Positions 1-14,558 of a stretch of DNA of 14,558 nucleotides are shown in pieces (the stretch's first letter is position 1; the number at the start of each line of letters is the position of its first letter). A program made the translations under genes and the position numbers. This stretch comes from Methanospirillum sp. (GTDB lineage: Archaea > Halobacteriota > Methanomicrobia > Methanomicrobiales > Methanospirillaceae): contig NZ_JAJRBM010000005.1 in NCBI RefSeq assembly GCF_028679455.1, forward strand, positions 1-14,558, given 5' to 3'. The notes below the pieces were generated by a model, which saw only the letters and a list, made by a program, of their open reading frames with translations, searched no databases and was not told the DNA's origin.

Positions 1-213
1 ATATCTGGCATGGGTCTGAATGCCCGGTCTCAATTCTTGGATCAATTTCAGAACTGATGTTATCAGGAAGGGATTCTGTATAACATCAGGTGTATGATTA
101 GAGATATCTCCTATCTCATTAACCCGCTGATGATATAAATCCAAAATGCTATACGAATATATGATAGTTGTTCCGGGTCTCTGATATATGAGAACGAGCG
201 AGCCGGATCTGAC

Positions 214-594
214 TTGGTTTCAGGTGATTATCTGTCAGTCATTCTGGTAATTGATGACTCAATCAAAGATCGCGAATTACTCGCACAGATGCTTATTCAG
301 GCAGGATACCAGGTGTATGCAAAATCTGATGGAGAGTCAGGAGTCTCCTTCTGCCAGAACCAGCAGCCGGATATGGTTCTTGTGGATATGGTTATGCCTG
401 GGATGAACGGGATAGAGGTTCTCAGGTCTCTCAAGACTATGCATCCCACTATCAAGGTTATTCTTTGCACCGCTGCCGGGAGCGAAGTATCAGTAGCCCT
501 TGCCATGCGGGAAGGAGCCGCCGGGTATGTCGTTAAACCTTATAATCAGGATAAGATCCTGATGAATATTCAGCGGGCACTTGGGCTCATGTGA
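214..594 (+). CDS. Single-domain CheY-like response regulator receiver protein
   Basis: 126-aa ORF with the receiver signature: acidic pair in 'VIDDS', phospho-acceptor Asp in 'MVLVDMVMPGMNG', Thr in 'ILCTAAG', Lys in 'YVVKPY'. No output domain. The TTG at 214 is the first start in frame; the exact start is uncertain because there is no strong RBS. Confidence 0.8.
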   Translation: MVSGDYLSVILVIDDSIKDRELLAQMLIQAGYQVYAKSDGESGVSFCQNQQPDMVLVDMVMPGMNGIEVLRSLKTMHPTIKVILCTAAGSEVSVALAMREGAAGYVVKPYNQDKILMNIQRALGLM

Positions 595-607
595 TCTGTG
601 GTCTGGT

Positions 608-634
608 GTAACCGTGCTCTCTGGCAACCGGTTA
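608..634. terminator. Inverted repeat GTAACCG(608-614)/CGGTTAC(628-634) with a 13-nt loop, between convergent gene ends
   Basis: Seen directly. It lies between the receiver stop (592-594) and the minus-strand stop at 632-634. There is no T-tract, so a terminator role is only a possibility. Confidence 0.2.
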
Positions 635-1069
635 CTCCTCTTCTTCTGGTGCAGGAGCCGGTGTGGGTGTTCCAACAGGGATTGGATCCGTGGTGAGAAG
701 TGAATACTCTACGGTCATGAAGTTGCCATCTATCTTCAGGTAGTATAAGCCTGTACCATGGATAAGGATCTTCTGGTTGGTGCTGGCCGGATAATGCCTG
801 TTGTACCCGCCGTCTGCGATGAGGTTCTCCCAGGGATCCCGGATCTCAATCGTTACCCACCCATAGGTTGGATCACTCACCTTTGGATGCACCGTGTAAT
901 CGATGATGAATGGTCCGTTCAGAACCTTCAGAATACGACCCTGCGGTGTCCCGTTCAACTCAATCCCCTGTTCTGAATACACGGCATGGGGGACAACCCG
1001 TGTCCCGGTTGTATTGGTATACCCGACTGATACTCGTGGTGACGGGTTGAAATTCGCGGTCCGGTCCAT
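632..1069 (-). CDS. Hypothetical secreted, probably N-glycosylated protein (C-terminal part, counted from the first ATG after an in-frame stop)
   Basis: 145-aa ORF with N-x-S/T sequons (NTT, NGT), a beta-rich composition and a PTPAPAPEEEE tail. The same frame stays open upstream to 1186 with no ATG/GTG/TTG, and continues beyond a TAA into the signal-peptide ORF at 1187-1291. Confidence 0.5.
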   Translation of the reverse strand: MDRTANFNPSPRVSVGYTNTTGTRVVPHAVYSEQGIELNGTPQGRILKVLNGPFIIDYTVHPKVSDPTYGWVTIEIRDPWENLIADGGYNRHYPASTNQKILIHGTGLYYLKIDGNFMTVEYSLLTTDPIPVGTPTPAPAPEEEE

Positions 1070-1291
1070 TGGGTACCTGGTGACCGAAGAGGTGGGAACC
1101 GGGGTAGGGGTCGCGGTTGGCAGGACGAGTTCGGTGATATTTTCTATCGACTCGGTTGTGATGTCTGACAGCGATGTATTGTTTAATTATAAGGATTCTG
1201 CTGCCTGGGTCATACCCACGGTGATTGCGATGAACTGAACCAGTATCAGGAAGATAACGATGACTGAACTGAGTGGTGTTTGTATACGCAT
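632..1291 (-). pseudogene. Secreted glycoprotein gene interrupted by one in-frame TAA (at 1187-1189); alternatively a sequencing error or two separate ORFs
   Basis: The ATG at 1291 encodes MRIQTPLSSVIVIFLILVQFIAITVGMTQAAESL, a charged N-terminus with a hydrophobic core that reads as a signal peptide, followed by TAA. After the stop the same frame continues LNNTSLSDITTESIENITELVLPTATPTPVPTSSVTRYP-MDRT… with sequons and a PT linker. 1291-1069 = 222, so the two ATGs are in phase. Confidence 0.45.
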
Positions 1292-1299
1292 GATGCTTA

Positions 1300-1884
1300 T
1301 CATGACTGGTAGATTCTGATCTCTTTCATTATTTCTTCGGTAAATTGTTCAATGCTTACCAATCCAAGTTCTCTGACCACCGGCCTGATAGGCCACCGTG
1401 TGGTTACCATCCCGACAAATTCCCGTCTGACCGTCCATACCATAGGGGGATGTGGTTGTTTCATCAGTATGTCAATAGATCCTCCCCAGACAGCACCCTG
1501 CACATCAAACCTCCCAACCTCATCAATTACGAGAATATCGGTTGTCTCTGGATTGAAATCAAGAATTGCCCGATTCCCGAATGACAGTCCTTCGGGTCTA
1601 AAAAAAAAGCGGGCGTGTTGTTCAGAGCCCACGTCAGGAGTTGTGGAACAGAGTTCTTCTGATATTCCGGTACCAAGATCCACCACTGAAAATCCTGACC
1701 TTGCCCCGTCTTTGAAATAACCGGGTGCCACAATCCCACGCATCCTCACTTCCTCTGTCCGAAGGCGATCCAGCATCTCCATTAGGAATGTAGTCTTGCC
1801 CTCTGCCTGTTCTCCTGATATAATATACACGGGTGGTTGCCGGGATGCAGGTATGCTGATATCGTTGTTCCTGGTATCAATCAT
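1300..1884 (-). CDS. P-loop NTPase of the THEP1/NTPase_1 family
   Basis: 194 aa. Walker A is 'ISGEQAEGKTTF' and Walker B 'ILVIDEVGRFD', comparable to 'IIDEIGKME' in THEP1, and the size is typical of archaeal NTPase_1 proteins. It ends 8 nt before the ATG at 1291, so it probably forms an operon with the secreted-protein gene. Confidence 0.7.
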   Translation of the reverse strand: MIDTRNNDISIPASRQPPVYIISGEQAEGKTTFLMEMLDRLRTEEVRMRGIVAPGYFKDGARSGFSVVDLGTGISEELCSTTPDVGSEQHARFFFRPEGLSFGNRAILDFNPETTDILVIDEVGRFDVQGAVWGGSIDILMKQPHPPMVWTVRREFVGMVTTRWPIRPVVRELGLVSIEQFTEEIMKEIRIYQS

Positions 1885-2080
1885 GGTTTCACGTTCTATT
1901 AGTATTTGATTGGTCTTGAGAAGATTAGTAAACCATTTCTATTTACTCGCATCAAATCAATAACGGATCTTTATTATTTTCGTACGAGTAACTACATAAG
2001 TATACGCATTCAGGTGCCGTATTTGCATCATGTAAAAAATGGAATAAACCTGAACAAGGATACCAACGGAACAAACAACG

Positions 2081-3781
2081 ATGATATGTAATTATTGTGA
2101 ACGGACCTGTGATATCGCGGAAGGGATCTCCGGGTACTGCAGGATGTACCGGAGCGAAGCGGGAGCCATTATTGAGAACTACCCAGATGCCTTTCTCAAC
2201 ATATACCCGGTCTCAAGCGAATCCATTCCGATGCTCCATTTCTATCCGAATAGTATCTTTCTGCTCGTCAGTACCATCGGGTGTAATTTTGCCTGTGATG
2301 GATGCATATCAGAGTTCCAGACCACCAGGCCGGGAACGCTGGAGAAAGTTCTGACCCCGCACACTCCTGATGAGATCCTTGCCATCGCCAGAGAAAGTTC
2401 CTGCAGGGGAATTACCTTCTGTCTCAATGAGCCCACGGTCTCACTCCCTACTTTCATCAGGCTGGCAACCGCTGCAAAAAACGAAGGATTTCTTGTCGGG
2501 TGTTCGAGTAACGGGTACATGACCGAAGATACGATACGGCAGATAATTCCGTTCCTTGATTTTATCAACATCGGGCTGAAAGGGAGTTCTGATGAACGGT
2601 ACCGGGAATGCGGAGTAGTATCCGGAGATCCGGTCTTTCGGAACCTGAAGATCCTGCACGATGCCGGCGTATTTATTGAGGTCTCTATCATGTACCTCTT
2701 TGGGAGAGAAGACGAGATTTATGGGGCTGTTGACCGCATCCGGAATATATCCCAAACGATCCCGATTCAGGTAATGCGGTTCATCGCAACACATGAGGAA
2801 CTCAATGCGTTTCAACCAACTAAAGAGCAGGCCGAGGCGATGTGTAAAACCCTGCAAAAGACTCTCGATCATGTATACCTCTTTAATACTCCGGCAACAA
2901 GCGAACTAGACTCGCGGTGTCCGGTTTGTGGGGAGACGATTGTACACCGGGTCTTTTTTGGCCCGATGGCAGCCCGGGTACTATCCTGCAGATCTGACGG
3001 AGTATGCAACTGCGGATACCGCTATCCTCACCAGGGAGATATCGTCCCGGTTCCAATTGAAGATACCCAGGTTCTTGGTGGGTACCGGTCGATCATGGGT
3101 GCCAAATTTATCGCCTCATTTCTCAACGTACTCGGCATCACCGACGAATCAGAGATTGACCAACTCTGTAACACGGTGATCATCAACGGGTACCTCCGGT
3201 ATCTGCAGGATCAACAGGATTCTCTTGAAACATTCACCTCAATGACCCGGTATCTTGCAGATCTCTCAGGGAGGCATGAGGTGGGTGAACGTCTTATCGG
3301 GTATGCTATGCAGGTGGCAACCGAAATTGCAGAACAGGTGCAAAACGCAGAAAAACCACGGGTATGCGGGGTCTTCTGTCACCCGCTCTCTCCCATGTAT
3401 GCCACCAAGTTTGGCAATACACTTGTAGAGATGACCGGCGGATTAAGCCTGAACAAGCAGGAGAATTTCAGAGAGAGTTCTCATGCTGAGTACACCGTTG
3501 AGGAGTTTAACCGGCTAAATCCTGATATGATCCTCATCTCCGGTCATTTTGCACCGTCTATCGATGATTTTCTCACCACCTGCCGTGATTTAGGCATTTC
3601 GTGCCGGGCGATATCAGAGAAGAAGGTGTATGTCATGGATAGCGAGTATTCTTCAGGGAACCTTGGCTGGCTGATCAGTCTGATGGACGTAGCCAACATT
3701 ATGCATCCTGAATTATTCAGTTATTCCCTTGAGAAAGAGAAGGCCCGGCTTGAAACGTTCATCGCTACCGTATCAGCTTGA
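2081..3781 (+). CDS. Radical SAM enzyme of the PflA/AmrS-like activase subfamily, fused to a C-terminal class III periplasmic-binding-protein-like (FecB/BtuF-type) domain
   Basis: 566 aa. The N-terminal Cys-rich segment CNYCERTC…GYC and the 'HFYPNS…STIGCNFACDGC' CxxxCxxC motif (nt 2282-2305) are typical of PflA/AmrS-type radical SAM enzymes. 'LNEPT' sits where GGEP is expected. A Cys cluster CPVC…C…CNC lies at nt 2918-3013. The C-terminal ~250 aa carry 'PDMILISGHFAPS' and 'KVYVMDSEY…WLISLMDVANIMHPELF', reminiscent of Peripla_BP_2 proteins. The stop overlaps the next start (TGATG, 3779-3783). Confidence 0.8.
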   Translation: MICNYCERTCDIAEGISGYCRMYRSEAGAIIENYPDAFLNIYPVSSESIPMLHFYPNSIFLLVSTIGCNFACDGCISEFQTTRPGTLEKVLTPHTPDEILAIARESSCRGITFCLNEPTVSLPTFIRLATAAKNEGFLVGCSSNGYMTEDTIRQIIPFLDFINIGLKGSSDERYRECGVVSGDPVFRNLKILHDAGVFIEVSIMYLFGREDEIYGAVDRIRNISQTIPIQVMRFIATHEELNAFQPTKEQAEAMCKTLQKTLDHVYLFNTPATSELDSRCPVCGETIVHRVFFGPMAARVLSCRSDGVCNCGYRYPHQGDIVPVPIEDTQVLGGYRSIMGAKFIASFLNVLGITDESEIDQLCNTVIINGYLRYLQDQQDSLETFTSMTRYLADLSGRHEVGERLIGYAMQVATEIAEQVQNAEKPRVCGVFCHPLSPMYATKFGNTLVEMTGGLSLNKQENFRESSHAEYTVEEFNRLNPDMILISGHFAPSIDDFLTTCRDLGISCRAISEKKVYVMDSEYSSGNLGWLISLMDVANIMHPELFSYSLEKEKARLETFIATVSA

Positions 3782-4563
3782 TGAGAATTATGTGTTCCTT
3801 ACATCATACTTCAAAAACTGATCCAGATTTTGATCTTGAATCTGTCTTTGATGCAGATGACTACCTTTACTTTTATGGGGAAGGGCTGAAGGACGAGTAT
3901 ACCGATGAAGAGGTTTCATTCCTTATCAGGGAATTCTGCCTTGATGCACCGAAACAGGTTCTTGACCTTGCCTGTGGACATGGGAGACATGCAAACAGGC
4001 TTGCAGGGTTTGGGTATACGGTTACGGGTGTTGACCAGAGCCGCGATTTTATCGCAATTGCCAGGAGTGATGCAGAGAAAAGAGGAGTCAGTGTCCGGTA
4101 TCTCTGCGGTGATGTGCGAAAGTTTTCAGACCCTGTGGCATATGACGGTGTCATTCATCTGTTCAGTTCCTTTGGATATTTTTCAGATGAGGAGAACGAG
4201 CTGGTGATCAGAAACGTTTCACTGTCACTACGGAAAAACGGAGTGTTTTGTCTTGATATCCTGAATCGTGATGCCTTTTTGAAAAATTATCCTCGTTGCT
4301 CGGTACGGGAGAAGAATACAGATCTGATGATCGACCGGAACCGGTTCGATCCGGTATCGGGGAGATTGTATAACTCACGCATCGTTATCAGAGATGGGAA
4401 GCGAAAAGATACCCCGTTCTTTCTCAGACTCTATAATCCGAATGAGATCCTTAGGATCCTTACCGCAGAAGGACTGGTTGTCACAAAGATCTTCGGAGAC
4501 TGGAAGGGTAATACGTTTGATGAGAATTCAAGGCGGATGATTCTTGTTGCCAGAAAAGAATGA
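3781..4563 (+). CDS. Class I SAM-dependent methyltransferase
   Basis: 260 aa. Motif I 'VLDLACGHGRHA', an acidic residue ending beta2 ('VTGVDQS'), motif II 'CGDVRKF' and 'DGVIHLFSSFGYF'. It is translationally coupled to the upstream radical SAM gene. TTG at 3778 and ATG at 3790 are also possible starts. Confidence 0.85.
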   Translation: MRIMCSLHHTSKTDPDFDLESVFDADDYLYFYGEGLKDEYTDEEVSFLIREFCLDAPKQVLDLACGHGRHANRLAGFGYTVTGVDQSRDFIAIARSDAEKRGVSVRYLCGDVRKFSDPVAYDGVIHLFSSFGYFSDEENELVIRNVSLSLRKNGVFCLDILNRDAFLKNYPRCSVREKNTDLMIDRNRFDPVSGRLYNSRIVIRDGKRKDTPFFLRLYNPNEILRILTAEGLVVTKIFGDWKGNTFDENSRRMILVARKE

Positions 4564-4582
4564 GTGACAGTCAGGAACCAGG

Positions 4583-4603
4583 GTGATGATATCATGTCAT
4601 CAC
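4583..4603 (+). terminator. Hairpin GTGATGA-tatcatg-TCATCAC about 20 nt after the methyltransferase stop
   Basis: Perfect 7-bp inverted repeat, read directly from the sequence. It could contribute to 3' end formation together with the T-tract at 4670-4676. Confidence 0.3.
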
Positions 4604-4669
4604 GGTTTCAAGAGAAGAAGGTACCTGAAATGATAGTATTATTGGAATAATCCTGAGTAACCTATGGTC

Positions 4670-4676
4670 TTTTTTT
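4670..4676 (+). terminator. Oligo-T tract (T7), archaeal-type intrinsic terminator for the radical SAM/methyltransferase transcript
   Basis: 'ggtctttttttcacc' lies about 107 nt downstream of the stop at 4563. Archaeal RNA polymerase terminates at T-runs. Confidence 0.45.
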
Positions 4677-4705
4677 CACCCTACATAAATCGCTAAACTT
4701 AAATC

Positions 4706-4720
4706 TTTATTTAGTATATA
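4706..4720 (+). promoter_or_regulatory. Candidate TATA box (CTTTATTTAGTATATA) for the SPFH gene
   Basis: A/T-rich TATA-like element about 50-60 nt upstream of the ATG at 4769. The RBS-like 'AAGGGATGA' at 4755-4764 precedes the start. Confidence 0.35.
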
Positions 4721-4731
4721 GTGCTTTGCCA

Positions 4732-4747
4732 TATCTCATACATGAGA
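4732..4747. promoter_or_regulatory. Perfect inverted repeat ATCTCAT-AC-ATGAGAT between the putative TATA box and the SPFH start; candidate operator
   Basis: 7-bp arms with a 2-nt spacer, read directly. It sits where an archaeal TSS or repressor site would be expected. Confidence 0.3.
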
Positions 4748-4768
4748 TTATCTAAAAAGGGATGAATA

Positions 4769-6589
4769 ATGGATTTTTTAGTTCGATTGTTGTTAGTCAT
4801 ACTCGGAATACTAGTAATCTGGGTGTTATTGAAAGGACTGATCCTGATTCATGCGAATGAAGTAGGTATTGTAACCAAGTGTATGTTTGGGAAAAAATTA
4901 CCGCAGGGCAAAATTATCGCAACCAAAGGAGAGATTGGTGTTCAAGCGGACATTCTCATGCCTGGGTTATATTACTATATACCCATTATCTGGAGAGTAA
5001 AGCGGGAAAAAGTCATTGAAATCAGGCCGGATAATGTTGGCATTGTCTCTGCGATTGAAGGATTACCCATCCCATCCGGTCGATTGCTTGGTGATGAAGT
5101 GCAAAGCAACTCGTTTCAGGATGCTCGGATGTTTCTTGAAAATGGCGGGTGTAAAGGGCCACAAATAGCAATCCTGAAGCCGGGAACATACCGCGTAAAT
5201 ACCCATATCTTCACGGTATTGGAAAAACCCATTACAGCGGTCCAACAGGGGAAAGTAGGGATTGTGAATGCTCTTGATGGTATCCCGCTTCCTTCCAGGT
5301 TTGCAATTGCTCCGGCTCCGCTCGGAGATCACAGCCATTTCCAGAATGGACAGGTATTTATCCAGAGCAATGGATATAGGGGTACCCAACTTGAGACCCT
5401 GCAACCCGGGGATTACTATATAAACCCACTTCTATTCGATGTTGTCCCAGTGGCCATGACCGTTGTCCCACCAGGAAATGTTGCCGTTATTACCTCAAGC
5501 GTTGGAGAAGAACTTGAAAAATCTCCAGATACTGCTCCTGCTTTAGTAACACCATCCAATTTGAATCAGCCGATTCATGAGAATGCAGAACATCTCCTGA
5601 TTACAGATAAAACCAAAAGAGGTATCCTCCGCAATCCCATTGCGCCAGGGCAATACAATCTGAATACAGCAGCATATCGGAGTGATATTGTACCGACGAG
5701 TGCGGTGACCATTGACTGGGCAAGTCCTGAAGGGGCGAAAGAAACCCTGCAGTTTACCCAGAAAAACAAGGGTGAGAGCGTCTCGGTTGCAGAGTTCTTT
5801 AAATTCGGACAGTTACGCGTCACATCCCAGGATGGATTTCAACTTGAAGTCGATGTCAGACTGATTGTCCGGATTCCTGCGGATAATGCACCATTTGTAA
5901 TCGCACGGTTCGGAAGTGTATACAATCTGATTGAACAGGTAGCCCACCCACTGATCGATGCTTCATTTAGGAACGAGGCAGGAAATCAACTAGCACTGCA
6001 GTTTGTTCATGATAGGACAAAACTTCAACAGACGGCATTCGAAAGGGCACAGGAAGAGTTTAAAAAGTATCAGGTTGAGGTTCAGGGACTATTAATCGCG
6101 TATATTAAAGTGGATGAAACCCTTCTGCAGACCCAGACCCTCAAAGAGATCGCAGTCCAGCAACAGCAGCAGTACCAACAGGAGGCTAAAGCGCAAGAGG
6201 AGAGGATCGCGGTTGCTGAAAAGACAGCTCGTGCCGATATGCAGGGACAGGTTATCGCAGCAAAGTTGTCTATTGATATCAACAAGGATAATGCACAGGC
6301 TGCACGTGAATCCGCATACGGTACCCGTGATGCAACCAAAGCGAATGCTGAAGGAGCCGCATATGCAAATGAACAGGTTGGTATCGGGACCGCGAAAGCA
6401 TACATCGCACAGAAAGAAGCCCTAGGTCCTGAAAATGTGGCGATGTTGCAGGCAATCCAGAAGATTGCAGATGGGAAGATCCTTATCACCCCGAATATTC
6501 TGGTAACCGGTGAGGGTTCTCAGGGAGGTAGTCTCCTTACTGCATACTTCGCTTCGTTGCTTGAACAAACAAAACAGAAAACTCAATAA
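4769..6589 (+). CDS. SPFH/band-7 (flotillin-like) membrane protein with four tandem N-terminal repeat modules
   Basis: 606 aa. N-terminal transmembrane helix (LLLVILGILVIWVLL), the 'LIHANEVGIV' SPFH entry motif, an SPFH core around residues 320-450, and a Q/E/A-rich coiled-coil tail (QQQQQYQQEAKAQEER…) typical of flotillin/YqiK-like proteins. Four ~70-aa repeats share 'VGIV…G.PLP.G…PG.Y..N' motifs. Confidence 0.85.
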   Translation: MDFLVRLLLVILGILVIWVLLKGLILIHANEVGIVTKCMFGKKLPQGKIIATKGEIGVQADILMPGLYYYIPIIWRVKREKVIEIRPDNVGIVSAIEGLPIPSGRLLGDEVQSNSFQDARMFLENGGCKGPQIAILKPGTYRVNTHIFTVLEKPITAVQQGKVGIVNALDGIPLPSRFAIAPAPLGDHSHFQNGQVFIQSNGYRGTQLETLQPGDYYINPLLFDVVPVAMTVVPPGNVAVITSSVGEELEKSPDTAPALVTPSNLNQPIHENAEHLLITDKTKRGILRNPIAPGQYNLNTAAYRSDIVPTSAVTIDWASPEGAKETLQFTQKNKGESVSVAEFFKFGQLRVTSQDGFQLEVDVRLIVRIPADNAPFVIARFGSVYNLIEQVAHPLIDASFRNEAGNQLALQFVHDRTKLQQTAFERAQEEFKKYQVEVQGLLIAYIKVDETLLQTQTLKEIAVQQQQQYQQEAKAQEERIAVAEKTARADMQGQVIAAKLSIDINKDNAQAARESAYGTRDATKANAEGAAYANEQVGIGTAKAYIAQKEALGPENVAMLQAIQKIADGKILITPNILVTGEGSQGGSLLTAYFASLLEQTKQKTQ

Positions 6590-6648
6590 TCATAAAATAT
6601 CTCAAAAATGTCATTTTCAAAACCTGAATATTAACCGGGAAATATGGA

Positions 6649-6972
6649 ATGAAAAAATCGGGAAGGATACTTCGTTGCCCGGTATGCAATGGCCGGATGG
6701 AATATAAAGCGATCGATTACTGGTGTGACAGACCAAAAAATGTCTGCTCACGGTGTGGGTATGATGGTTCGTTTGCCTTTGAATGGGATAATGATGATCT
6801 TATGGAGGATTATCGGCCAAAGAACGGTAAACAACGAAAGAAAAGGGCAGTATCGATTGAAGATGATAAACTTCGCTCCATTACCCGATTTTATGCAATA
6901 CTCTACATCATTACATTCATTATTTTATGCGGGCTGGCTATCATAGGATTCATCAAGATGAATGTCATGTAA
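6649..6972 (+). CDS. Tail-anchored zinc-ribbon protein (CPVC…CSRC) with a C-terminal transmembrane helix
   Basis: 107 aa. Cys pairs at residues 10/13 and 33/36, a K/R-rich linker, and a C-terminal hydrophobic helix 'FYAILYIITFIILCGLAIIGFI'. It lies 59 nt downstream of the SPFH gene on the same strand with similar A/T-rich composition. Confidence 0.55.
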   Translation: MKKSGRILRCPVCNGRMEYKAIDYWCDRPKNVCSRCGYDGSFAFEWDNDDLMEDYRPKNGKQRKKRAVSIEDDKLRSITRFYAILYIITFIILCGLAIIGFIKMNVM

Positions 6973-6990
6973 GGAATATTATCCTTATCC

Positions 6991-7857
6991 TTACAGGAAT
7001 TCGCTCGTTCCCACATTGTATTTTCTCTGATGTTTTCGAAGAGCAGTCTCCATATCAGGTGCATTCATCACGTCAAACTCAAATTTTTCAGGGTCACTGA
7101 TGGCAACCGACATAACAATGTTGATCCCGTTCTCGAAGAGCACATCAGGGATCAACTGGGCACTGGATCCATAGAGTGCCCGAATCCGGGCATTTTTAGC
7201 ATACCTGACTACCTCTTCAAATGTTCCGTTCACGAGGGTTGAACCGGTGATGATGGCGACATCAGCATCGACAAGTACCTCGCGGTTCTCATCAGCCGGG
7301 TGAACGGTGATTCCTGCCGGGCCATGGGTGATCGTCTCACCGACAATGGTGGTTCTGAATACCTCCGGAGGCCGCTGGTCAGTGACATGGAGTTCCCGGC
7401 ACCGGCCTGCATAACTCTTGATGAGGCCGCCATATCCCACAATAACCAGGTTATCATCACTCCTGACCAGGTCTTTTACTTCAACCCCTGTAGTAAATCC
7501 TTTATCCTGCAGGACTTCATCGGTTACCAGCGGCTGTGAGAGGGCGTTGAGTGCGGTCAAACCGATAGAACGCTGACTGATCGAAGGTTTTGCAATGGTT
7601 TCCCTGGCAACCTCAACGAGTGGTCTGCCGATGCAGGTCTGGAGATATATGAAATCAAGACCGGTCTGGTCAGCGCCGTACCGGGGGTTGTTGTCCTGAA
7701 AACTCATCGCTACCCCGCAGCAGCCGTTCGTTCCGATGACTGCGTTCCATCCCGGATTAAGACCGAATTTCCTGACTCTTCCTTCAGGGAGATCCAGTCG
7801 CTGGTATTCCTGAATGATTTTTTGATATCCTTTCTCAAGGATGGTTTTAGAGTTCAT
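6991..7857 (-). CDS. DUF364/DUF4213-type protein (putative heavy-metal chelation, Rossmann-like domain)
   Basis: 288 aa. 'VIVGYGGLIKSYAGRCRELHVTDQRP' is a glycine-rich Rossmann segment typical of DUF364, with an N-terminal DUF4213-like part. It is transcribed divergently from modA; such proteins are often linked to Mo/W or other metal uptake loci. Confidence 0.65.
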   Translation of the reverse strand: MNSKTILEKGYQKIIQEYQRLDLPEGRVRKFGLNPGWNAVIGTNGCCGVAMSFQDNNPRYGADQTGLDFIYLQTCIGRPLVEVARETIAKPSISQRSIGLTALNALSQPLVTDEVLQDKGFTTGVEVKDLVRSDDNLVIVGYGGLIKSYAGRCRELHVTDQRPPEVFRTTIVGETITHGPAGITVHPADENREVLVDADVAIITGSTLVNGTFEEVVRYAKNARIRALYGSSAQLIPDVLFENGINIVMSVAISDPEKFEFDVMNAPDMETALRKHQRKYNVGTSEFL

Positions 7858-7944
7858 ATTTCTGTTCTTATCCTAATGATTTATTTGATGTGATCATAAA
7901 GACGTACACTTTAGCTTCACTTTATGATAGGGACTCATAGTTTA

Positions 7945-7956
7945 TTAATCGATTAA
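7945..7956. promoter_or_regulatory. Perfect 12-bp palindrome TTAATCGATTAA in the divergent DUF364/modA promoter region
   Basis: Read directly. It lies about 90 nt upstream of the DUF364 start and about 115 nt upstream of modA. Candidate regulator binding site. Confidence 0.25.
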
Positions 7957-8071
7957 ATATATTGTAGTAATCTCTTTTAATTTACCTTAGTATTAATAGT
8001 GTATAGTTCTTTTTACAGTTCGGTTTTTCTCCTTCGATATCATATACGCTATTGACTGTTAGGTGAATTTC

Positions 8072-8878
8072 ATGAAAAAGATTATTACGTACAGTATTAT
8101 TGGACTTTTCATGGTCCTGCTGATTGCACAGATCGGCTGTGTATCAGGGGCAGAAACGAATGCATCTGAAATTACTATCTTTGCAGCAGCATCGCTGACC
8201 GGTGCTATCGGAGATCTTACTCCTATCTTTGAGGCTGCTCACCCAGGGGTAAAGGTTACCTCAAACCTTGATAGTTCAGCAACGCTGGAAACCCAGATCA
8301 AAGAAGGAGCACATGCAGATCTCTTCCTTCCGGCCAGCGACAAGAACCTGAACAACCTGGTAAAAGAGAAGATGATTGATAATTCAAGCATCACTCCGTA
8401 TGCAACCAACAAACTTGCACTCATTGTCCCCGCAGACAACCCGGCAGGTATCACTGGTCTTGCAGATCTGAGCAAAGATGGCGTGAAGATCGTCAGTGAG
8501 ACCTCTGAAGTCCCGGTCAGGAAATACACCGACCAGATGCTGAACAAGACCGTCAATGATACTGCATACGGACAGGCATTTGTTGATGGATTCAAGAAGA
8601 ACATCATCTCAGAAGAGACCAATGTTGCCGGAGCAACCACCAAGGTCTCACTGGGAGAAGCAGATGCAGGAATCACCTATTACTCTGATGTGACCAAGGA
8701 CCTTGCAGACAAGGTAAAGATCATCGAGATTCCGGAAAAACTCAATGTCGTAGCCTCATACAAGGCTGGAATTATTACCGATGCAGAGCATGCCGATATG
8801 GCAAAGGAGTTTGTCACCCTGCTCACCTCTGATGAAGGAAAGACTGTACTGAAAGACTATAAGTTCAGCCCGGTTTGA
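8072..8878 (+). CDS. modA: Molybdate/tungstate ABC transporter substrate-binding protein (ModA type)
   Basis: The 'ITIFAAASLTGA' motif is diagnostic of ModA-family binding proteins. There is a signal peptide with a possible lipobox (IAQIGC), and the RBS AGGTGA (8061-8066) precedes ATG 8072. The GTG at 8063 in the ORF track is a less likely start. Confidence 0.9.
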   Translation: MKKIITYSIIGLFMVLLIAQIGCVSGAETNASEITIFAAASLTGAIGDLTPIFEAAHPGVKVTSNLDSSATLETQIKEGAHADLFLPASDKNLNNLVKEKMIDNSSITPYATNKLALIVPADNPAGITGLADLSKDGVKIVSETSEVPVRKYTDQMLNKTVNDTAYGQAFVDGFKKNIISEETNVAGATTKVSLGEADAGITYYSDVTKDLADKVKIIEIPEKLNVVASYKAGIITDAEHADMAKEFVTLLTSDEGKTVLKDYKFSPV

Positions 8879-8962
8879 ACGTAGATACGAATGGCCGGAA
8901 TCACCAGAATGAGGGGCATACCCTCCTTCTGTTTCCTGCCTGATTACGGTCTGATGATACCT

Positions 8963-8968
8963 TTTTTC
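8963..8968 (+). terminator. Oligo-T tract (T6) downstream of modA, preceded by the GAGGG-gcata-CCCTC hairpin (8912-8926)
   Basis: 'gataccttttttctg'. A second T6 tract sits at 9043-9048. Confidence 0.4.
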
Positions 8969-9202
8969 TGAATTGATGTCAGTTTCGGATAATTATGGTA
9001 TAGCATTCTCAGCCTGTATCATTTCTAAAAGAGATTCAACCCTTTTTTGTCACGAATGACCTGAAAATGGACTTAATCTTCCTTCAGTCTATTTATATGT
9101 GCTGTTAACACCCAGTGTCGATACCTATGTCAATGCATATGCGCGAGAATACTGCTTTATTAAGAAATAACAATAGATATGATTGGCATACTTGGGATAT
9201 AT

Positions 9203-9210
9203 TTATATTG
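9203..9210 (+). promoter_or_regulatory. TATA box TTTATATT for the mop gene, with a strong RBS AAGGAGG at 9249-9255
   Basis: The TATA element is 54 nt upstream of ATG 9264. The RBS is followed by an 8-nt spacer before the ATG. Confidence 0.4.
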
Positions 9211-9263
9211 ATATATGTCTAGTATCCTGTGCCGCGATCTGTGGCAATAAGGAGGAACTAACA

Positions 9264-9473
9264 ATGAAAATCAGTGCACGTAATGCCTTGAAAGGAACCA
9301 TAAAATCTATTACCAAAGGTCCGGTTAACGCAGAAGTCGTCATAGACATCGGTAATGGTGTCCTTGTCACTGCAATGATCACTGCCCACGCAGTAGAAAA
9401 CCTTGCTTTAAAAGAAGGAAAGGCTGCCTACGCAGTAGTGAAGGCAAGCGAAGTAATGGTTGCAGTTGATTAA
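9264..9473 (+). CDS. mop: Stand-alone TOBE (Mop) domain molybdate/tungstate-binding protein
   Basis: 69 aa: 'MKISARNALKGTIKSITKGPVNAEVVIDIGNGVLVTAMITAHAVENLALKEGKAAYAVVKASEVMVA'. It shows the canonical 'SARN.l.G.V' TOBE start, and ATG 9264 has a strong RBS. The 96-aa ORF from 9183 is an artefactual 5' extension. Confidence 0.85.
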   Translation: MKISARNALKGTIKSITKGPVNAEVVIDIGNGVLVTAMITAHAVENLALKEGKAAYAVVKASEVMVAVD

Positions 9474-9519
9474 TCACATTGATCATACAAACCATTTAGA
9501 TTCACTATTCGTCTCTCTC

Positions 9520-9525
9520 TTTTTT
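9520..9525 (+). terminator. T-rich tract (tctctctcttttttat) downstream of mop
   Basis: T6 preceded by a CT repeat, 47 nt after the mop stop. Confidence 0.35.
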
Positions 9526-9618
9526 ATAGTGGTAGCTATACAATAGGCGTATCTACTTTGTTTTACACGTTCGCCTCATATCATGAGTCGTATGGATCAT
9601 ATCATATCAGATACATCC

Positions 9619-9630
9619 GGTTATATAACC
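9619..9630. promoter_or_regulatory. Perfect 12-bp palindrome GGTTATATAACC containing a consensus TATA box (TTATATAA); candidate modBC promoter
   Basis: Read directly. It lies about 82 nt upstream of the modB ATG at 9711. Confidence 0.35.
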
Positions 9631-9710
9631 AATAAAAGCAAACGAGTCACGGTCAGAGAATTGTTCCCAGACGAATCAGATACACATGGTTTGCGGGAGT
9701 TATCCGGATC

Positions 9711-10523
9711 ATGAAATCAGGAAGCATATATTCTGGAATAAGAAATAAACAGATTTCAAAAATATTATTGGGCCTGGTAGTACTCATCACGATACTCTTC
9801 TTCACGCTTCCCCTGCTCTCACTCCTTCTGCGTATAACTCCGGATGAGTTCATCGCTGCAATCCTGAAACCTGAGGTTCAAAGTGCCATATATCTGTCAC
9901 TGCTCACCGCAGCTGCATCAACCGTGGTTATCGTCCTGATTGGAACGCCGCTTGCGTACCTGAATGCACGGGTTTCCTATCGTGGCAGGGACTTCGTTGA
10001 AACCCTCTTAGATCTCCCGATAGTTCTCCCCCCGTCAGTAGCCGGACTTGCGCTGCTGGTTCTGTTTGGAAGACGTGGTCTTATCGGTGCATACCTGAAC
10101 GATGTAGGAATCGCAATCATCTTCACCACCTTTGCGGTGGTACTTGCCCAGGTCTTTGTTGCCGGGCCGTTGTATATCAGACAGGCAAAAACTGCCTTTG
10201 CGATGGTGGATCAGGTTTATGAATCAGCATCACGAACGCTTGGGGCTTCCCCGCTGATCACCTTCGTGAAAGTGACCATTCCGCTTGCCTGGACTGGTCT
10301 CGTTTCAGGAGTAATATTAGCATTTGCCCGGGCTATCGGAGAGTTTGGAGCAACGATTATGGTGGCGGGAAATCTGCCAGGAAAAACTCAGACCATGCCA
10401 CTTGCAATCTATGGATTGATGCAGAGTGATCTTACTGCATCAATAGCCCTTTCTCTGGTCCTTATCAGTATCTCCTGCATTATTCTGATTACGATACGGT
10501 TGCTTGCCGGGAGGTCTGCCTGA
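9711..10523 (+). CDS. modB: Molybdate/tungstate ABC transporter permease
   Basis: 270 aa, polytopic. The ABC permease EAA-like loop 'ESASRTLGASPLITFVKVTIPLA' is present. The stop overlaps the modC start (TGATG at 10521-10525). Confidence 0.9.
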   Translation: MKSGSIYSGIRNKQISKILLGLVVLITILFFTLPLLSLLLRITPDEFIAAILKPEVQSAIYLSLLTAAASTVVIVLIGTPLAYLNARVSYRGRDFVETLLDLPIVLPPSVAGLALLVLFGRRGLIGAYLNDVGIAIIFTTFAVVLAQVFVAGPLYIRQAKTAFAMVDQVYESASRTLGASPLITFVKVTIPLAWTGLVSGVILAFARAIGEFGATIMVAGNLPGKTQTMPLAIYGLMQSDLTASIALSLVLISISCIILITIRLLAGRSA

Positions 10524-11275
10524 TGCTTACTGCACGAATAGAAAAACAGCTCCGGGATTACCCGTTGATGATCGATCTCACGGTAAACCGTGGGGAAGTA
10601 CTGGTTCTTCTCGGTACAAACGGGTCCGGGAAATCAACGGTGCTCAATCTTCTCGCCGGACTCCTGACACCTGATAAGGGAGAGATCTCGCTCAATGGGA
10701 TACCGATATTCAGGAGTGAGGAGGGGATATCCTGCCCGCCTGAAGAGCGGAATATAGGATATGTCTTTCAGGATTATGCTCTCTTTCCTCATATGACCGT
10801 GTTTGATAATATTGCCTATGGTCTGAAGATGCGAAAGGTTCCCAAAGAAATAATAGAGAATCAGATACAGGCAACTCTACACGATCTTGGTATCTCCCAT
10901 GTTCGAAATGAACGGGTGACCAACCTTTCCGGAGGACAACGGCAGCGGGTGGCTCTTGCGAGAGCCCTTATTATCCAGCCGCATCTGTTACTCCTGGATG
11001 AACCTCTCACGGCTCTTGATCCTCAGGCCAGGGATAAGATCAGAATCGAACTCCGAGAGCAACTGATTACCAGCAATCAGCCATCAATTCTGGTCACGCA
11101 CTCCATAAAAGATGCCCAGATCATTGGAGATAAGGTAATAATGCTGGAAAAAGGATCCGTTATCTGGACCGGGAGACCTGAGGAACTTGAATCCGGAAGC
11201 GGGGTTCCTGACCTGGAACCTCTCAAGTGTGAGTGCGACGAGTACCGGGATTTTGGAGCGATTGCGATAGACTGA
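10523..11275 (+). CDS. modC: Molybdate/tungstate ABC transporter ATP-binding protein lacking the C-terminal TOBE domain
   Basis: Walker A 'GTNGSGKST', ABC signature 'LSGGQRQRVALARAL', Walker B 'LLLLDEP' and the H-loop 'LVTHS'. At 250 aa it has no room for the C-terminal TOBE domain found in ~350-aa ModC proteins. Confidence 0.9.
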   Translation: MLTARIEKQLRDYPLMIDLTVNRGEVLVLLGTNGSGKSTVLNLLAGLLTPDKGEISLNGIPIFRSEEGISCPPEERNIGYVFQDYALFPHMTVFDNIAYGLKMRKVPKEIIENQIQATLHDLGISHVRNERVTNLSGGQRQRVALARALIIQPHLLLLDEPLTALDPQARDKIRIELREQLITSNQPSILVTHSIKDAQIIGDKVIMLEKGSVIWTGRPEELESGSGVPDLEPLKCECDEYRDFGAIAID

Positions 11276-11323
11276 TTCGGTTGATTCCCTGGTATCATCG
11301 GTCTGATTTTGGGCTGAAAATGT

Positions 11324-11336
11324 TAAAAAGGGAAAA
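11324..11336 (-). terminator. Two T5 tracts on the minus strand (A5…A5 on plus) just after the DUF4013 stop
   Basis: Plus-strand 'gttaaaaagggaaaaagagg'; the minus strand reads CTCTTTTTCCCTTTTTAAC, 8 nt after the stop. Confidence 0.35.
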
Positions 11337-11344
11337 AGAGGGGT

Positions 11345-12010
11345 TCAGTCTGCTGCATCGTAGATGAGCGAGTAGTACCTTCCTCCCACGATTGAAAGGT
11401 ACGGGGCTACAATCAGAGATAATAGCCAGCCGATCACCGGGATTACGTTCAGAATAATCTGGATAACCATCATTACCACACAAAGGACAATGATGGCGAG
11501 GATATACGTTACCCATCCGATGGATCCGATTTTTGCGAAAATTTCACTGAATTCGAATGCAGATCCCATACTTCCAGAGCGTGCAAACCTCATGATTCCA
11601 ATAATCTCAAAGAGACCGAATATGAAGGCCAGGATGAAGAAAGCCAGGAATGAGATGCCCACCGTTCCAATAAGGAGTCCGATGTATGCACCTGGATCCC
11701 CGACATCCATTCCTAGCATGGTCAAGGCTCCGAGCCCTCCGCTCATCACAAAAATGATAAGTCCGATAATACAGGGGATGATCATATAGACGATGCCGAT
11801 GATAAGCATCTTGATTCCGTCGATGAACATTCCTCCGTAATTATCAGTTTCCGGGGCAGGGGTGATTCCTTTCATTACCCGGAGCGTGTAACCCATGATC
11901 AATGGGAAAATGATGGTTCCGATGATCAGGACGATCCATCTTCCCCACTTCCCGACTAATCCTTCCGTTGCATACCCGAAGGACTCCTTAATACTTGCAA
12001 TTATGTCCAT
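11345..12010 (-). CDS. DUF4013-family integral membrane protein
   Basis: 221 aa from ATG 12010, which is preceded by GGTGGAATC. 'GYTLRVMKGITPAPETDNYGGMFIDGIKMLIIGIVYMIIP' matches my recollection of the DUF4013 core, with 5-6 transmembrane helices. The ATG at 12049 in the ORF track adds 13 aa and is less likely. Confidence 0.65.
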   Translation of the reverse strand: MDIIASIKESFGYATEGLVGKWGRWIVLIIGTIIFPLIMGYTLRVMKGITPAPETDNYGGMFIDGIKMLIIGIVYMIIPCIIGLIIFVMSGGLGALTMLGMDVGDPGAYIGLLIGTVGISFLAFFILAFIFGLFEIIGIMRFARSGSMGSAFEFSEIFAKIGSIGWVTYILAIIVLCVVMMVIQIILNVIPVIGWLLSLIVAPYLSIVGGRYYSLIYDAAD

Positions 12011-12332
12011 GATTCCACCATGATGATATTGGATGCATTGGCTATTCATAGGTAATATACTTATTTATTGCATCGCCGGCTCGCCTGCTGCAATCCGGAA
12101 TGATATTCGCCAGATTGGTTGTGATAACTCGGTTTAGACATTTTGGTTGAATTAGTATTACTCTGGTTGTGTTGCCTAATTATCACTCGGGCCGGATATT
12201 TCATACCCCTGAATATGGTGATAGCGATCCTCGCATGTCATTGTGAGGTGTATACGTTCGTGAAAGACATGTTGGGGATATCACAAAAACACCCGAATAT
12301 TGTGAGTTTTTTAACCTCTTCCTTCCTGTTAA

Positions 12333-12340
12333 TTTATAAT
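12333..12340 (+). promoter_or_regulatory. Consensus-like TATA box TTTATAAT, 32 nt upstream of ATG 12372 (leaderless arrangement)
   Basis: Read directly. The spacing fits a transcription start at or just before the ATG at 12372. Confidence 0.35.
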
Positions 12341-12371
12341 AATGTATTTATTGTCACCTTATAGACATATT

Positions 12372-12569
12372 ATGATGAGTTTTGAGCATTTCTCCGAAGG
12401 AAACCAGTATGAAGTACTGGTAAAATCAAGTGAGTACTTCCAATTGAAAAAGAAGTTAGCAAAGGGTATCTACCAGACCATTATACGCTACGTTGATGGA
12501 AAACTCCGTACCTGTGTTGTAGTTGGTCTTTCAAACAATCTGAAGGTCCTGGTCATAGCAATTAATTAA
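12372..12569 (+). CDS. Candidate small protein (65 aa, unknown function) in an A/T-rich 560-bp gap
   Basis: The ORF MMSFEHFSEGNQYEVLVKSSEYFQLKKKLAKGIYQTIIRYVDGKLRTCVVVGLSNNLKVLVIAIN is bracketed by a TATA box (12333-12340) and a T7 tract (12597-12603). I recognise no homology, so the call rests on signals only. Confidence 0.3.
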   Translation: MMSFEHFSEGNQYEVLVKSSEYFQLKKKLAKGIYQTIIRYVDGKLRTCVVVGLSNNLKVLVIAIN

Positions 12570-12596
12570 CTCTGATTTCATCAGACTATTATCTCC

Positions 12597-12603
12597 TTTT
12601 TTT
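12597..12603 (+). terminator. Oligo-T tract (T7) on the plus strand after the small ORF, preceded by the TGATTTCATCA mini-palindrome
   Basis: 'tatctcctttttttagc'. The orientation fits a plus-strand transcript, not the minus-strand permease. Confidence 0.35.
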
Positions 12604-12613
12604 AGCTTCCCTG

Positions 12614-14317: not shown

Positions 14318-14488
14318 ATCTTTTTATATGCCTACTTCCTCTATTAATCCAATTCCATTTGATAGTAGGCCATAAGGATATAGAATTTCGTATTCCCTCT
14401 TCCTGTTTCATCACTAAAAACGATGCAGGATGAAAGACCAGGGTCTTTATTTATGAGTAGGTATTCATCACCACATTCCAGAAATTTG

Positions 14489-14508
14489 TCATGAGGCCTT
14501 CCTCATGA
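14489..14508. promoter_or_regulatory. 20-bp palindromic element TCATGAGG-CCTT-CCTCATGA upstream of the permease
   Basis: Perfect 8-bp arms, read directly, about 170 nt upstream of the permease ATG at 14317 on the minus strand. Confidence 0.25.
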
Positions 14509-14558
14509 GGTGCACCAGATACCTGCAAAAATTATCTGAGCGATTAAAAATATTATTG

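Follow-up and report, generated by a model that had tools for sequence, protein, structure and literature searches.

A radical S-adenosylmethionine enzyme joined to half of an importer binding protein, with a possible role in tungsten and molybdenum handling by strict anaerobes

Why would an enzyme of the radical S-adenosylmethionine (SAM) superfamily carry a domain related to the binding proteins of solute importers, and why would it be encoded with a methyltransferase? The question is raised by the gene for a 566-residue fusion protein in a 14,558-nucleotide stretch of DNA from Methanospirillum sp. (NCBI RefSeq assembly GCF_028679455.1, contig NZ_JAJRBM010000005.1, positions 1 to 14,558 of the forward strand; hereafter the window). 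An earlier note on this DNA had described the fusion, its coupling to a SAM-dependent methyltransferase and a divergent NTPase, and had proposed that the group tailors a corrinoid or tetrapyrrole cofactor or modifies a protein or RNA. Our analysis confirms the fusion as a whole and supports the interpretation in part; the data favour a role with tungsten or molybdenum (W/Mo) over one with corrinoids or tetrapyrroles, and speak neither for nor against the modification of a protein or RNA. We estimate at roughly 40% the probability that the fusion is a cytoplasmic radical SAM enzyme that, with its partner methyltransferase, forms a two-enzyme unit of W/Mo acquisition processing an imported W/Mo species in strict anaerobes, and that, jointly with this, its catalytic module descends from the AmrS/PflA branch while its docking module is a domesticated half of the MolA/FecB-type importer binding proteins. 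The fusion gene and the features adjoining it are:

2081-3781, forward strand: fusion gene (open reading frame, ORF), 566 amino acids, AmrS/PflA-like radical SAM module plus class III binding-protein-derived domain
2087-2140, forward strand: N-terminal Cys4 motif (C3, C6, C10, C20), candidate auxiliary cluster or zinc site
2267-2716, forward strand: radical SAM core, with the CX3CX2C motif C68-C72-C75 at 2282-2305
2918-3013, forward strand: Cys4 ribbon (C280, C283, C309, C311) that closes the AmrS-like module, within the TIGR04337 match
3077-3778, forward strand: binding-protein-derived domain, residues ~333-566, helical linker plus C-lobe only, FecB/MolA-type
3781 (or TTG 3778)-4563, forward strand: class I SAM methyltransferase, 260-261 amino acids, translationally coupled through a TGATG overlap (PF13649)
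1885-2080, no strand: divergent spacer of 196 bp, A/T-rich in base composition, presumed promoter region
1300-1884, reverse strand: THEP1/NTPase_1-type P-loop NTPase, 194 amino acids, divergent from the fusion gene

The ORFs, the overlap and the divergent NTPase lie exactly as first described. The fusion stop codon TGA (3779-3781) and the methyltransferase ATG at 3781 have one base in common, with TTG 3778 and ATG 3790 as alternative methyltransferase starts. The spacer has a GC content of 34%, compared with 46% for the window; aligned with its counterparts from five related, Methanospirillum-type loci (L002, L003, L006, L007, and L015), it showed no clear operator and only a common A/T-rich, TATA-like patch.

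The three-part architecture and its cysteine motifs stood up to profile searches and alignment. PF04055, the radical SAM superfamily model, matched residues 63-212 at 60.7 bits, above its gathering score, and TIGR04337 (AmrS), whose cutoff is 220 bits, gave 106.5 over residues 2-314. The glycyl-radical activase models TIGR02493 and TIGR02494 gave 23.6 and 30.6 bits against cutoffs of 231.75 and 174.35, the models for MoaA and for the tungsten-cofactor oxidoreductase maturase (TIGR04317) fell far under their cutoffs of 284 and 380 bits, and no NCBIfam model reached its cutoff on the fusion protein. The motif C68-N-F-A-C72-D-G-C75, which supplies the CX3CX2C signature for the SAM-binding [4Fe-4S] cluster, is invariant in 83 homologues, as is the Cys4 ribbon; the N-terminal Cys4 motif is invariant in an alignment of 25 homologues and at least 90% conserved in the 83, and C108 and C141 are also among the cysteines conserved in these alignments. 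The protein has no N-terminal hydrophobic segment (maximum 12-residue hydropathy 0.43, compared with 2.87 for the ModA protein of the window) and so is predicted to be cytoplasmic, as had been proposed. An AlphaFold2 model of the protein (pLDDT 89.2, pTM 0.84) shows a partial TIM-barrel fold in the radical SAM module and a beta-hairpin region at residues 286-303, inside the Cys4 ribbon; the best structural match is the pyruvate formate-lyase (PFL)-activating enzyme.

The C-terminal domain belongs, by sequence and fold, to the class III (Peripla_BP_2) binding proteins. On the window protein alone PF01497 scored only 20 bits, below its gathering threshold of 27.5, whereas the C-terminal part of a profile built from 25 homologues matched nothing in the PDB but class III binding proteins, in the order 4ovk (1.6e-15), 4hn9, 4pag, and IsdE, with BtuF at 5e-3. 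Every one of these matches was to the latter half of a binding protein (residues ~110-330), and the AlphaFold2 model places five helices (336-420) before a single small three-stranded alpha/beta lobe (427-566). Thus, this domain is half a binding protein that has lost the N-lobe sheet, and the fusion protein does not show the class III arrangement of two alpha/beta lobes connected through a backbone helix. The earlier description of a FecB/BtuF-like domain of ~250 residues was therefore right as to homology and too generous as to extent, because nothing beyond the linker helices and C-lobe has been retained. By sequence, the fused domain matches MolA no better than it does binding proteins of unknown ligand (4ovk, 4hn9, 4pag).

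The family that carries this domain appears compact. A search of 1.84 billion representatives returned ~15-20 clusters with both domains, down to 30% identity, and the next relatives beyond them were AmrS-type proteins of ~330 amino acids that align to residues 1-315; the nearest outgroup consists of genuine AmrS proteins, 26-35% identical and aligned from residue 3 onward. We infer from these relationships that the family is an offshoot of the AmrS branch that acquired a new C-terminal domain. Among the AmrS relatives is a Memo-AMMECR1-radical SAM fusion (P0179) with 29% identity to the window protein. Four proteins of 723-734 amino acids (P0146, P0150, P0154, and P0157) have an AmrS-like N-terminal portion of 315 residues that is 31-35% identical to the fusion; the C-terminal part of P0146 and P0150, ~400 residues, had no Pfam match, and on sequence these four may represent another fusion on the AmrS branch.

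This is not a well-annotated family. The window protein is 100% identical to a protein from a Methanospirillum metagenome-assembled genome named only 'radical SAM protein', and database names across the family are confined to that one or 'pyruvate formate-lyase activating enzyme'. A literature search found no account of the fusion family or of its pathway, in keeping with the earlier statement that no described pathway fits. What is new is the accessory domain and the regulatory context; the superfamily itself is known.

We found relatives encoded in 351 species-level genomes of strict anaerobes in a scan of GTDB species genomes, and analysed gene neighbourhoods at 80 loci kept from these, 59 archaeal and 21 bacterial, by calling ORFs, clustering them and checking presence with tblastn. 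The archaeal loci are mostly from Methanomicrobiales, with others from Methanohalophilus, the anaerobic methanotrophs ANME-1, and Methanolliviera; the bacterial loci are from Desulfobacterales, Desulfatiglandales, Geobacteraceae, Syntrophobacteraceae, and one Spirochaetia. Relatives with at least 57% identity to the window protein (group A) occur in Methanomicrobiales only, more distant ones with 37-42% identity (group B) are widespread, and some genomes carry copies of both groups together. At one locus (L035, 8001-9737), the fusion gene is split into two ORFs of 353 and 213 amino acids, likely through a frameshift or an assembly error.

The pairing with a methyltransferase recurs across the family, which upholds the proposed functional coupling. 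Of 76 family genes, 46 have a class I methyltransferase gene directly beside them, in most cases reading in the same direction and often overlapping by 4 bp; widening the interval to 5 kb raises the number to 56. These counts are an undercount in GC-rich genomes, where antisense ORFs mask genes. Within 3 kb, 13 of the 15 group A loci have one, and in one protein (P0041, 856 amino acids) the radical SAM module, the binding domain and a methyltransferase form a single chain. The partners belong to three subfamilies. The first is that of the window, also found downstream of the fusion gene in L002, L003, L007, and L012; the second, ~290 amino acids long, is found in Methanoregula and is the type fused in P0041; the third, UbiE/ArsM-like and ~217 amino acids long, is immediately upstream of the fusion gene at 41 of 57 group B loci, in many cases overlapping it by 4 bp. 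With BLAST, the window methyltransferase showed no similarity to the second subfamily and an E value of 0.002 to the third. Geobacteraceae have a gene for a GNAT acetyltransferase where the partner methyltransferase would stand. Next to the fusion gene of the Methanoregula loci L043, L048, and L078 lie Mod operons in which ModB and ModA are separated by a TrmO_N-type, SAM-binding gene of ~160-190 codons (8163-8717 in L078); L043 and L048 have no class I methyltransferase within 3 kb of the fusion gene, and L078 has one adjacent. Given three methyltransferase subfamilies and the GNAT and TrmO_N variants, a transferase partner appears to be selected for, yet it is not one orthologous gene.

The window methyltransferase matched PF13649 (62.7 bits, cutoff 27) and PF08241 (45.7 bits, cutoff 21.2), and no specific NCBIfam equivalog at its cutoff. 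Its closest solved relatives, TylM1/DesVI, CcbJ, GSMT, and the cypemycin N-methyltransferase, are mostly small-molecule N-methyltransferases, which together with the GNAT partner hints at an amine substrate. The enzyme also weakly resembles the daptide and cypemycin N-methyltransferases, as it might if the genes matured a ribosomally synthesised and post-translationally modified peptide (RiPP) or served anti-phage defence, and there are weak PADLOC matches to pVip and mad2 and small unannotated ORFs in the L052 operon. We regard either role as extremely improbable: no conserved precursor-like small ORF accompanies the family, the PADLOC matches are to generic domains (27 and 68 bits), and the genes lie among those for metal transport and not in mobile or defence islands.

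The partner enzymes also bear on a second idea, that the pair alkylates a metalloid by analogy with the arsinothricin and arsenosugar pathways (ArsL or ArsS with ArsM, and the GNAT protein ArsN), in which case the lobe would bind an oxyanion or metalloid. The highest-scoring models for the group B partner methyltransferase are those for arsenite methyltransferase (59 bits), the window enzyme passes the Pfam TehB threshold (24.4 bits, threshold 20.4), and a GNAT protein replaces the methyltransferase in Geobacteraceae. The arsenite methyltransferase scores nevertheless lie far under the NCBIfam cutoffs, which range from 263 to 510, ars genes are not recurrent in the surroundings, control is by a riboswitch of the molybdenum- or tungsten-cofactor class (Moco/Tuco; described below) and not by an arsenic sensor, and W(VI) and Mo(VI) oxyanions are, on chemical reasoning, poor radical acceptors. 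Such alkylation seems to us highly improbable.

Importer genes dominate the surroundings of group B. The typical operon encodes a secreted Peripla_BP_2 protein, a FecCD permease, an ABC ATPase and the methyltransferase, with the fusion gene last; the permease is present in 36 of 57 loci and the secreted binding protein in 39 of 57. The fused domain is related to the C-terminal half of these neighbouring binding proteins (26-34% identity, best E values 1e-17 to 1e-21), and for the window protein the best such match is to the L064 binding protein (E 4e-10). Nik/Opp-type importers stand in place of the others at four loci of the family, and some Desulfobacterales loci, such as the single-strand L033 cluster, include a TonB-dependent receptor. 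Because TonB-dependent receptors and type II importers occur at the loci, a bulky complex is suggested as ligand and not a bare oxyanion.

Several further features of these loci recur. Three or four tandem paralogous genes for secreted Peripla_BP_2 proteins stand beside the fusion gene in L003, L010, L015, L032, and L060, and in L060 an enterochelin-esterase-type gene (PF00756) and a PAP2 gene lie in the same run of genes on one strand. A protein of 390-437 amino acids (L051, 5133-6413, with homologues in L060, L063, and L068) recurs next to binding-protein genes in Desulfobacula and Desulfuromonadales loci; its sequence matched nothing in Pfam, NCBIfam, or the PDB, and the same holds for the recurrent neighbour c26 (426 amino acids).

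In group A, the neighbourhood points to molybdenum and tungsten, and the window itself contains a complete molybdate/tungstate ABC importer operon with a molbindin, next to a DUF4213/DUF364 gene:

6991-7857, reverse strand: DUF4213/DUF364 protein (PF04016, PF13938), probable functional context, membership of the unit unproven
8063-8878, forward strand: ModA (TIGR01256)
9183-9473, forward strand: Mop/TOBE molbindin (TIGR00638)
9711-10523, forward strand: ModB
10523-11275, forward strand: ModC (PF00528, PF00005, and PF03459 are the Pfam matches in the ModA-ModC operon)

The scores are 143.9 bits for ModA (cutoff 62.5), 82.1 bits for Mop (cutoff 55), and 86.8 and 38.3 bits for PF04016 and PF13938 in the DUF4213/DUF364 protein, whose gene adjoins ModA. 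As called, the Mop ORF begins at a TTG, whereas residue 28 is the first of the Mop domain (MKISARN...); translation therefore probably initiates at the ATG near 9264. Among the group A loci, 13 of 15 have at least one Mo/W-type gene within 8 kb, of the ModA/ModB, Mop, XdhC-like maturation-factor, or FmdE-like (FmdE-plus-zinc-finger) kinds. As a raw count, ModA or ModB genes are found no more than 8 kb from the fusion gene at about 12 of 81 loci, variously arranged. DUF364 genes occur at 7 of 15 group A and 7 of 57 group B loci (14 of 72). A structure paper of 2010 tied DUF364 to molybdate/tungstate transporters by genome context (PMC2954201), and MolBC-A is a characterised type II importer of molybdate and tungstate (PMC4031551, PMC4245157).

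Control elements link group B to the same metals. When every one of the 21 bacterial loci was scanned with Rfam models at their gathering thresholds, five proved to have RF01055 (Moco-motif) riboswitches, with 63-70 bits against a cutoff of 36:

L052, 5201-5318: ahead of a binding protein, two small ORFs, a GNAT gene and the fusion gene, all co-directional, no gap exceeding 25 bp
L069, 6376-6494: ahead of a binding protein, then the fusion gene
L077, 7649-7767: directly ahead of the fusion gene
L080, 7307-7425: ahead of a decayed C-terminal remnant of a binding protein, then the fusion gene
L064, 14504-14624, reverse strand: ahead of the importer operon, which is convergent with the fusion and methyltransferase genes

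No RF01055 match was found in the archaeal window or in the other 16 bacterial loci. The P3 stem is deleted in all five riboswitches, and Regulski et al. 2008 (PMC2408646) reported an almost perfect correlation of P3-less representatives of the Moco motif with the metabolism of the tungsten cofactor. Binding proteins under riboswitch control match MolA at E values of 8e-24 and 1e-11. In L080 (7354-7983), the binding protein under riboswitch control has decayed to its final ~90 residues, beside an intact fusion gene. The riboswitch-controlled importer operon of L064, a Spirochaetia locus, includes a radical SAM gene of its own (12238-13161, reverse strand, 307 amino acids); we considered this standalone gene as a relative of the family and rejected it, as it is BioB/HmdB/PylB-like and unrelated.

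These results bear directly on the corrinoid or tetrapyrrole role, including the variant in which the protein would be a new B12-dependent radical SAM methylase that holds cobalamin in its BtuF-like domain. The fold does also bind B12 and haem, with IsdE, HutB, ShuT, and BtuF all matched, and the methyltransferases weakly resemble CpaM and BchM. Moreover, at three related Geobacter-type loci (L069, 99-6306; L077; L080), genes for a CobN-like protein (1125-1483 amino acids) and a ChlI/ChlD-like AAA-VWA chelatase lie directly upstream of the riboswitch; a class I tetrapyrrole chelatase (or dechelatase; compare HmuS, PMC12583661) beside a W/Mo-regulated operon is puzzling. BtuF, however, is among the weakest of the binding-protein matches, Pfam and NCBIfam scans found no B12-binding domain (PF02310) in the fusion protein, none of the 21 bacterial loci has a cobalamin riboswitch in the Rfam scans, and the neighbours that recur are Mo/W genes. 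On this evidence the role first proposed in the earlier note has become very unlikely.

A biosynthetic role, in which the fusion, the methyltransferases, DUF364, and their partners would build or tailor a W/Mo metallophore or tailor the pterin cofactor itself and the lobe would recognise the product or a precursor, shares the Mo/W context and the riboswitch control. Importers and TonB-dependent receptors beside biosynthetic genes are typical of metallophore clusters, and the group A loci do resemble small clusters (DUF364, XdhC-like, NTPase, fusion, one or two methyltransferases, and FmdE-like). The only characterised DUF364 enzyme, furthermore, acts on SAM itself, cyclising 4''-methyl-SAM to methylazetidine carboxylate (PMC12930334). 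We nonetheless think this role unlikely: no exporter or scaffold enzyme (nonribosomal peptide synthetase, siderophore synthetase of the NIS type, or nicotianamine/opine synthase) recurs among the neighbour clusters, the L077 riboswitch drives the fusion gene alone, and homology to importer binding proteins fits the receipt of an imported ligand at least equally well.

Alternatively, the radical SAM enzyme and the methyltransferase could modify a W/Mo enzyme or a cofactor chaperone, in the manner of the PFL-activating enzyme and, presumably, AmrS. The classical substrates of PflA/AmrS-type enzymes are indeed proteins, a point that also weighs on the processing of a small W/Mo species. No candidate substrate protein is consistently adjacent, though, the strongest association being with importers and binding proteins; the solved relatives of the window methyltransferase act mostly on small molecules, and a lobe derived from a solute-binding protein argues for a small ligand. 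Maturation of a protein is in our judgement quite unlikely.

We therefore return to the processing of an imported W/Mo species. As we picture it, the lobe would capture in the cytoplasm a ligand of the kind handed to the importer by its secreted binding-protein paralogues, a W/Mo species most likely with an organic or thio ligand and not a bare oxyanion, and would bring it to the radical SAM active site; we conjecture a cleft between barrel and lobe. The 5'-deoxyadenosyl radical would then change or cut the ligand, and the partner would cap the product, a methyltransferase in most lineages and a GNAT acetyltransferase in some Geobacteraceae, after which the metal would be free for cofactor synthesis. 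We infer the identity of the ligand, the radical chemistry and the capping role. Two precedents follow a similar logic: ChuW frees iron from imported haem anaerobically, and in E. coli deferri-ferrichrome is acetylated after iron release.

Several points besides the usual protein substrates weigh against this reading. It needs a hypothetical organic or thio ligand, because bare molybdate and tungstate can be used without radical chemistry. A Mod/Mop/FmdE-type gene is present in only 8 of 57 group B loci, and the riboswitches, found at 5 of 21 bacterial loci of which four are from Geobacteraceae, are all in group B and none in the clade of the window, whose link to Mo/W is thus one of gene neighbourhood only. 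The loci with the most direct Mo/W links (L052, L069, L077, L080, L043, and L048) are often without a class I methyltransferase, which weakens any claim of an obligatory pair. The loci share ancestry, so the counts overstate the number of independent events, and ORF calling is approximate, with antisense ORFs masking genes in GC-rich genomes. Ligand, metal and enzymatic activity are all predicted from genes.

The NTPase belongs to the unit in a narrower sense than had been supposed. It matches PF03266 (50.7 bits, cutoff 23.9) and has the Walker A motif GEQAEGKT, and NF010248 scores 54.7 bits, under its cutoff of 156. Of the 15 group A loci, 7 have a homologue directly beside the fusion gene, compared with only 2 of the 57 in group B; extending the distance to 3 kb gives 8 of these 57, all from Methanomicrobiales. 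The membership of the NTPase holds in that order and not elsewhere.

The remaining genes of the window show little connection with the fusion. Between the methyltransferase and the DUF364 gene stand two forward-strand genes that are not conserved in related loci, one for a 606-amino-acid membrane-anchored SPFH/Band 7 protein whose long C-terminal part is coiled and rich in Gln and Ala (4769-6589) and one for a 107-amino-acid zinc-ribbon protein with a C-terminal transmembrane helix (6649-6972). A stand-alone response-regulator receiver domain (214-594, forward strand), a DUF4013 membrane protein (11345-12049, reverse strand), and a xanthine/uracil-type permease with a C-terminal extension of ~170 residues (12614-14317, reverse strand) have no recurrent link to the fusion gene. 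The reverse-strand ORF at 632-1069 (145 amino acids, with a tail rich in Pro, Thr, and Ala and a terminal EEEE), earlier taken for a secreted glycoprotein, lacks a signal peptide, matches no family and has no equivalent at related loci; perhaps it is not a genuine gene.

The family probably marks an undescribed step in W/Mo handling by strict anaerobes. A fuller picture, possible but doubtful, is a tungsten-cofactor-responsive pathway in which a radical SAM enzyme with a captured half binding protein would dismantle or remodel the ligand of an imported W/Mo complex and a transferase would finish the reaction, with methanogens, ANME and alkane-oxidising archaea, Geobacter, sulfate reducers, and syntrophs as its hosts. 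Tungsten or molybdenum is needed by formylmethanofuran dehydrogenase, formate dehydrogenase, aldehyde oxidoreductase, and class II benzoyl-CoA reductase. If the picture is true, there would be an enzymatic step between W/Mo uptake and cofactor assembly that was not known before, and these metals would be taken up in sulfidic habitats as something other than the free oxyanion; the use of thiomolybdate by a methanogen has been discussed (PMC11484787). The metal supply of anaerobes in sulfidic, metal-scavenging environments is poorly understood, and an enzyme pair under a tungsten-cofactor-class riboswitch and wired to MolA-like importers offers a testable handle on it. For the radical SAM superfamily, half of a solute-binding protein is a new type of accessory domain, and the family places an offshoot of the AmrS branch in a functional context for the first time.

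How does the fusion compare with known systems? It resembles AmrS throughout its N-terminal 314 residues, including the region of the N-terminal cysteine motif and the C-terminal ribbon, and differs in scoring 106.5 against the cutoff of 220 and in the appended binding-protein-derived domain of ~250 residues. Neither AMMECR1 nor Memo, nor any member of the glycyl-radical enzyme (formate C-acetyltransferase) family, was found in Pfam scans of the window or among the annotated recurrent neighbours, and homology to AmrS gives no chemistry because AmrS itself has no known function, as judged from a literature search. Unlike MolA and the other class III proteins (FecB, BtuF, IsdE, and CeuE), the fused domain keeps the linker helices and C-lobe only, is without signal peptide or lipobox, is predicted to be cytoplasmic, and is joined covalently to an Fe-S enzyme. 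The class B radical SAM methylases, such as Mmp10 and the glutamine C-methyltransferase of methyl-coenzyme M reductase (MgmA/QCMT), differ from it in having a B12-binding domain; the fusion is accompanied by a separate SAM methyltransferase, and its context is free of any cobalamin signal. The ArsL/ArsM and ArsS/ArsM pathways share the order of a radical SAM enzyme followed by a class I methyltransferase, on an inorganic oxyanion-type substrate, with a GNAT enzyme acting on the product; they have no specific sequence relationship to the fusion, whose loci lack ars context and carry a Moco/Tuco-class riboswitch. ChuW/HutW, finally, is likewise an O2-independent radical SAM enzyme encoded with TonB/ABC uptake genes, and it frees a metal through SAM radical and methyl chemistry. 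ChuW is HemN-like, without homology to the fusion, and holds both activities in one protein, whereas the system described here has an AmrS-like module, a separate class I methyltransferase, and regulation directed toward W/Mo and not iron.

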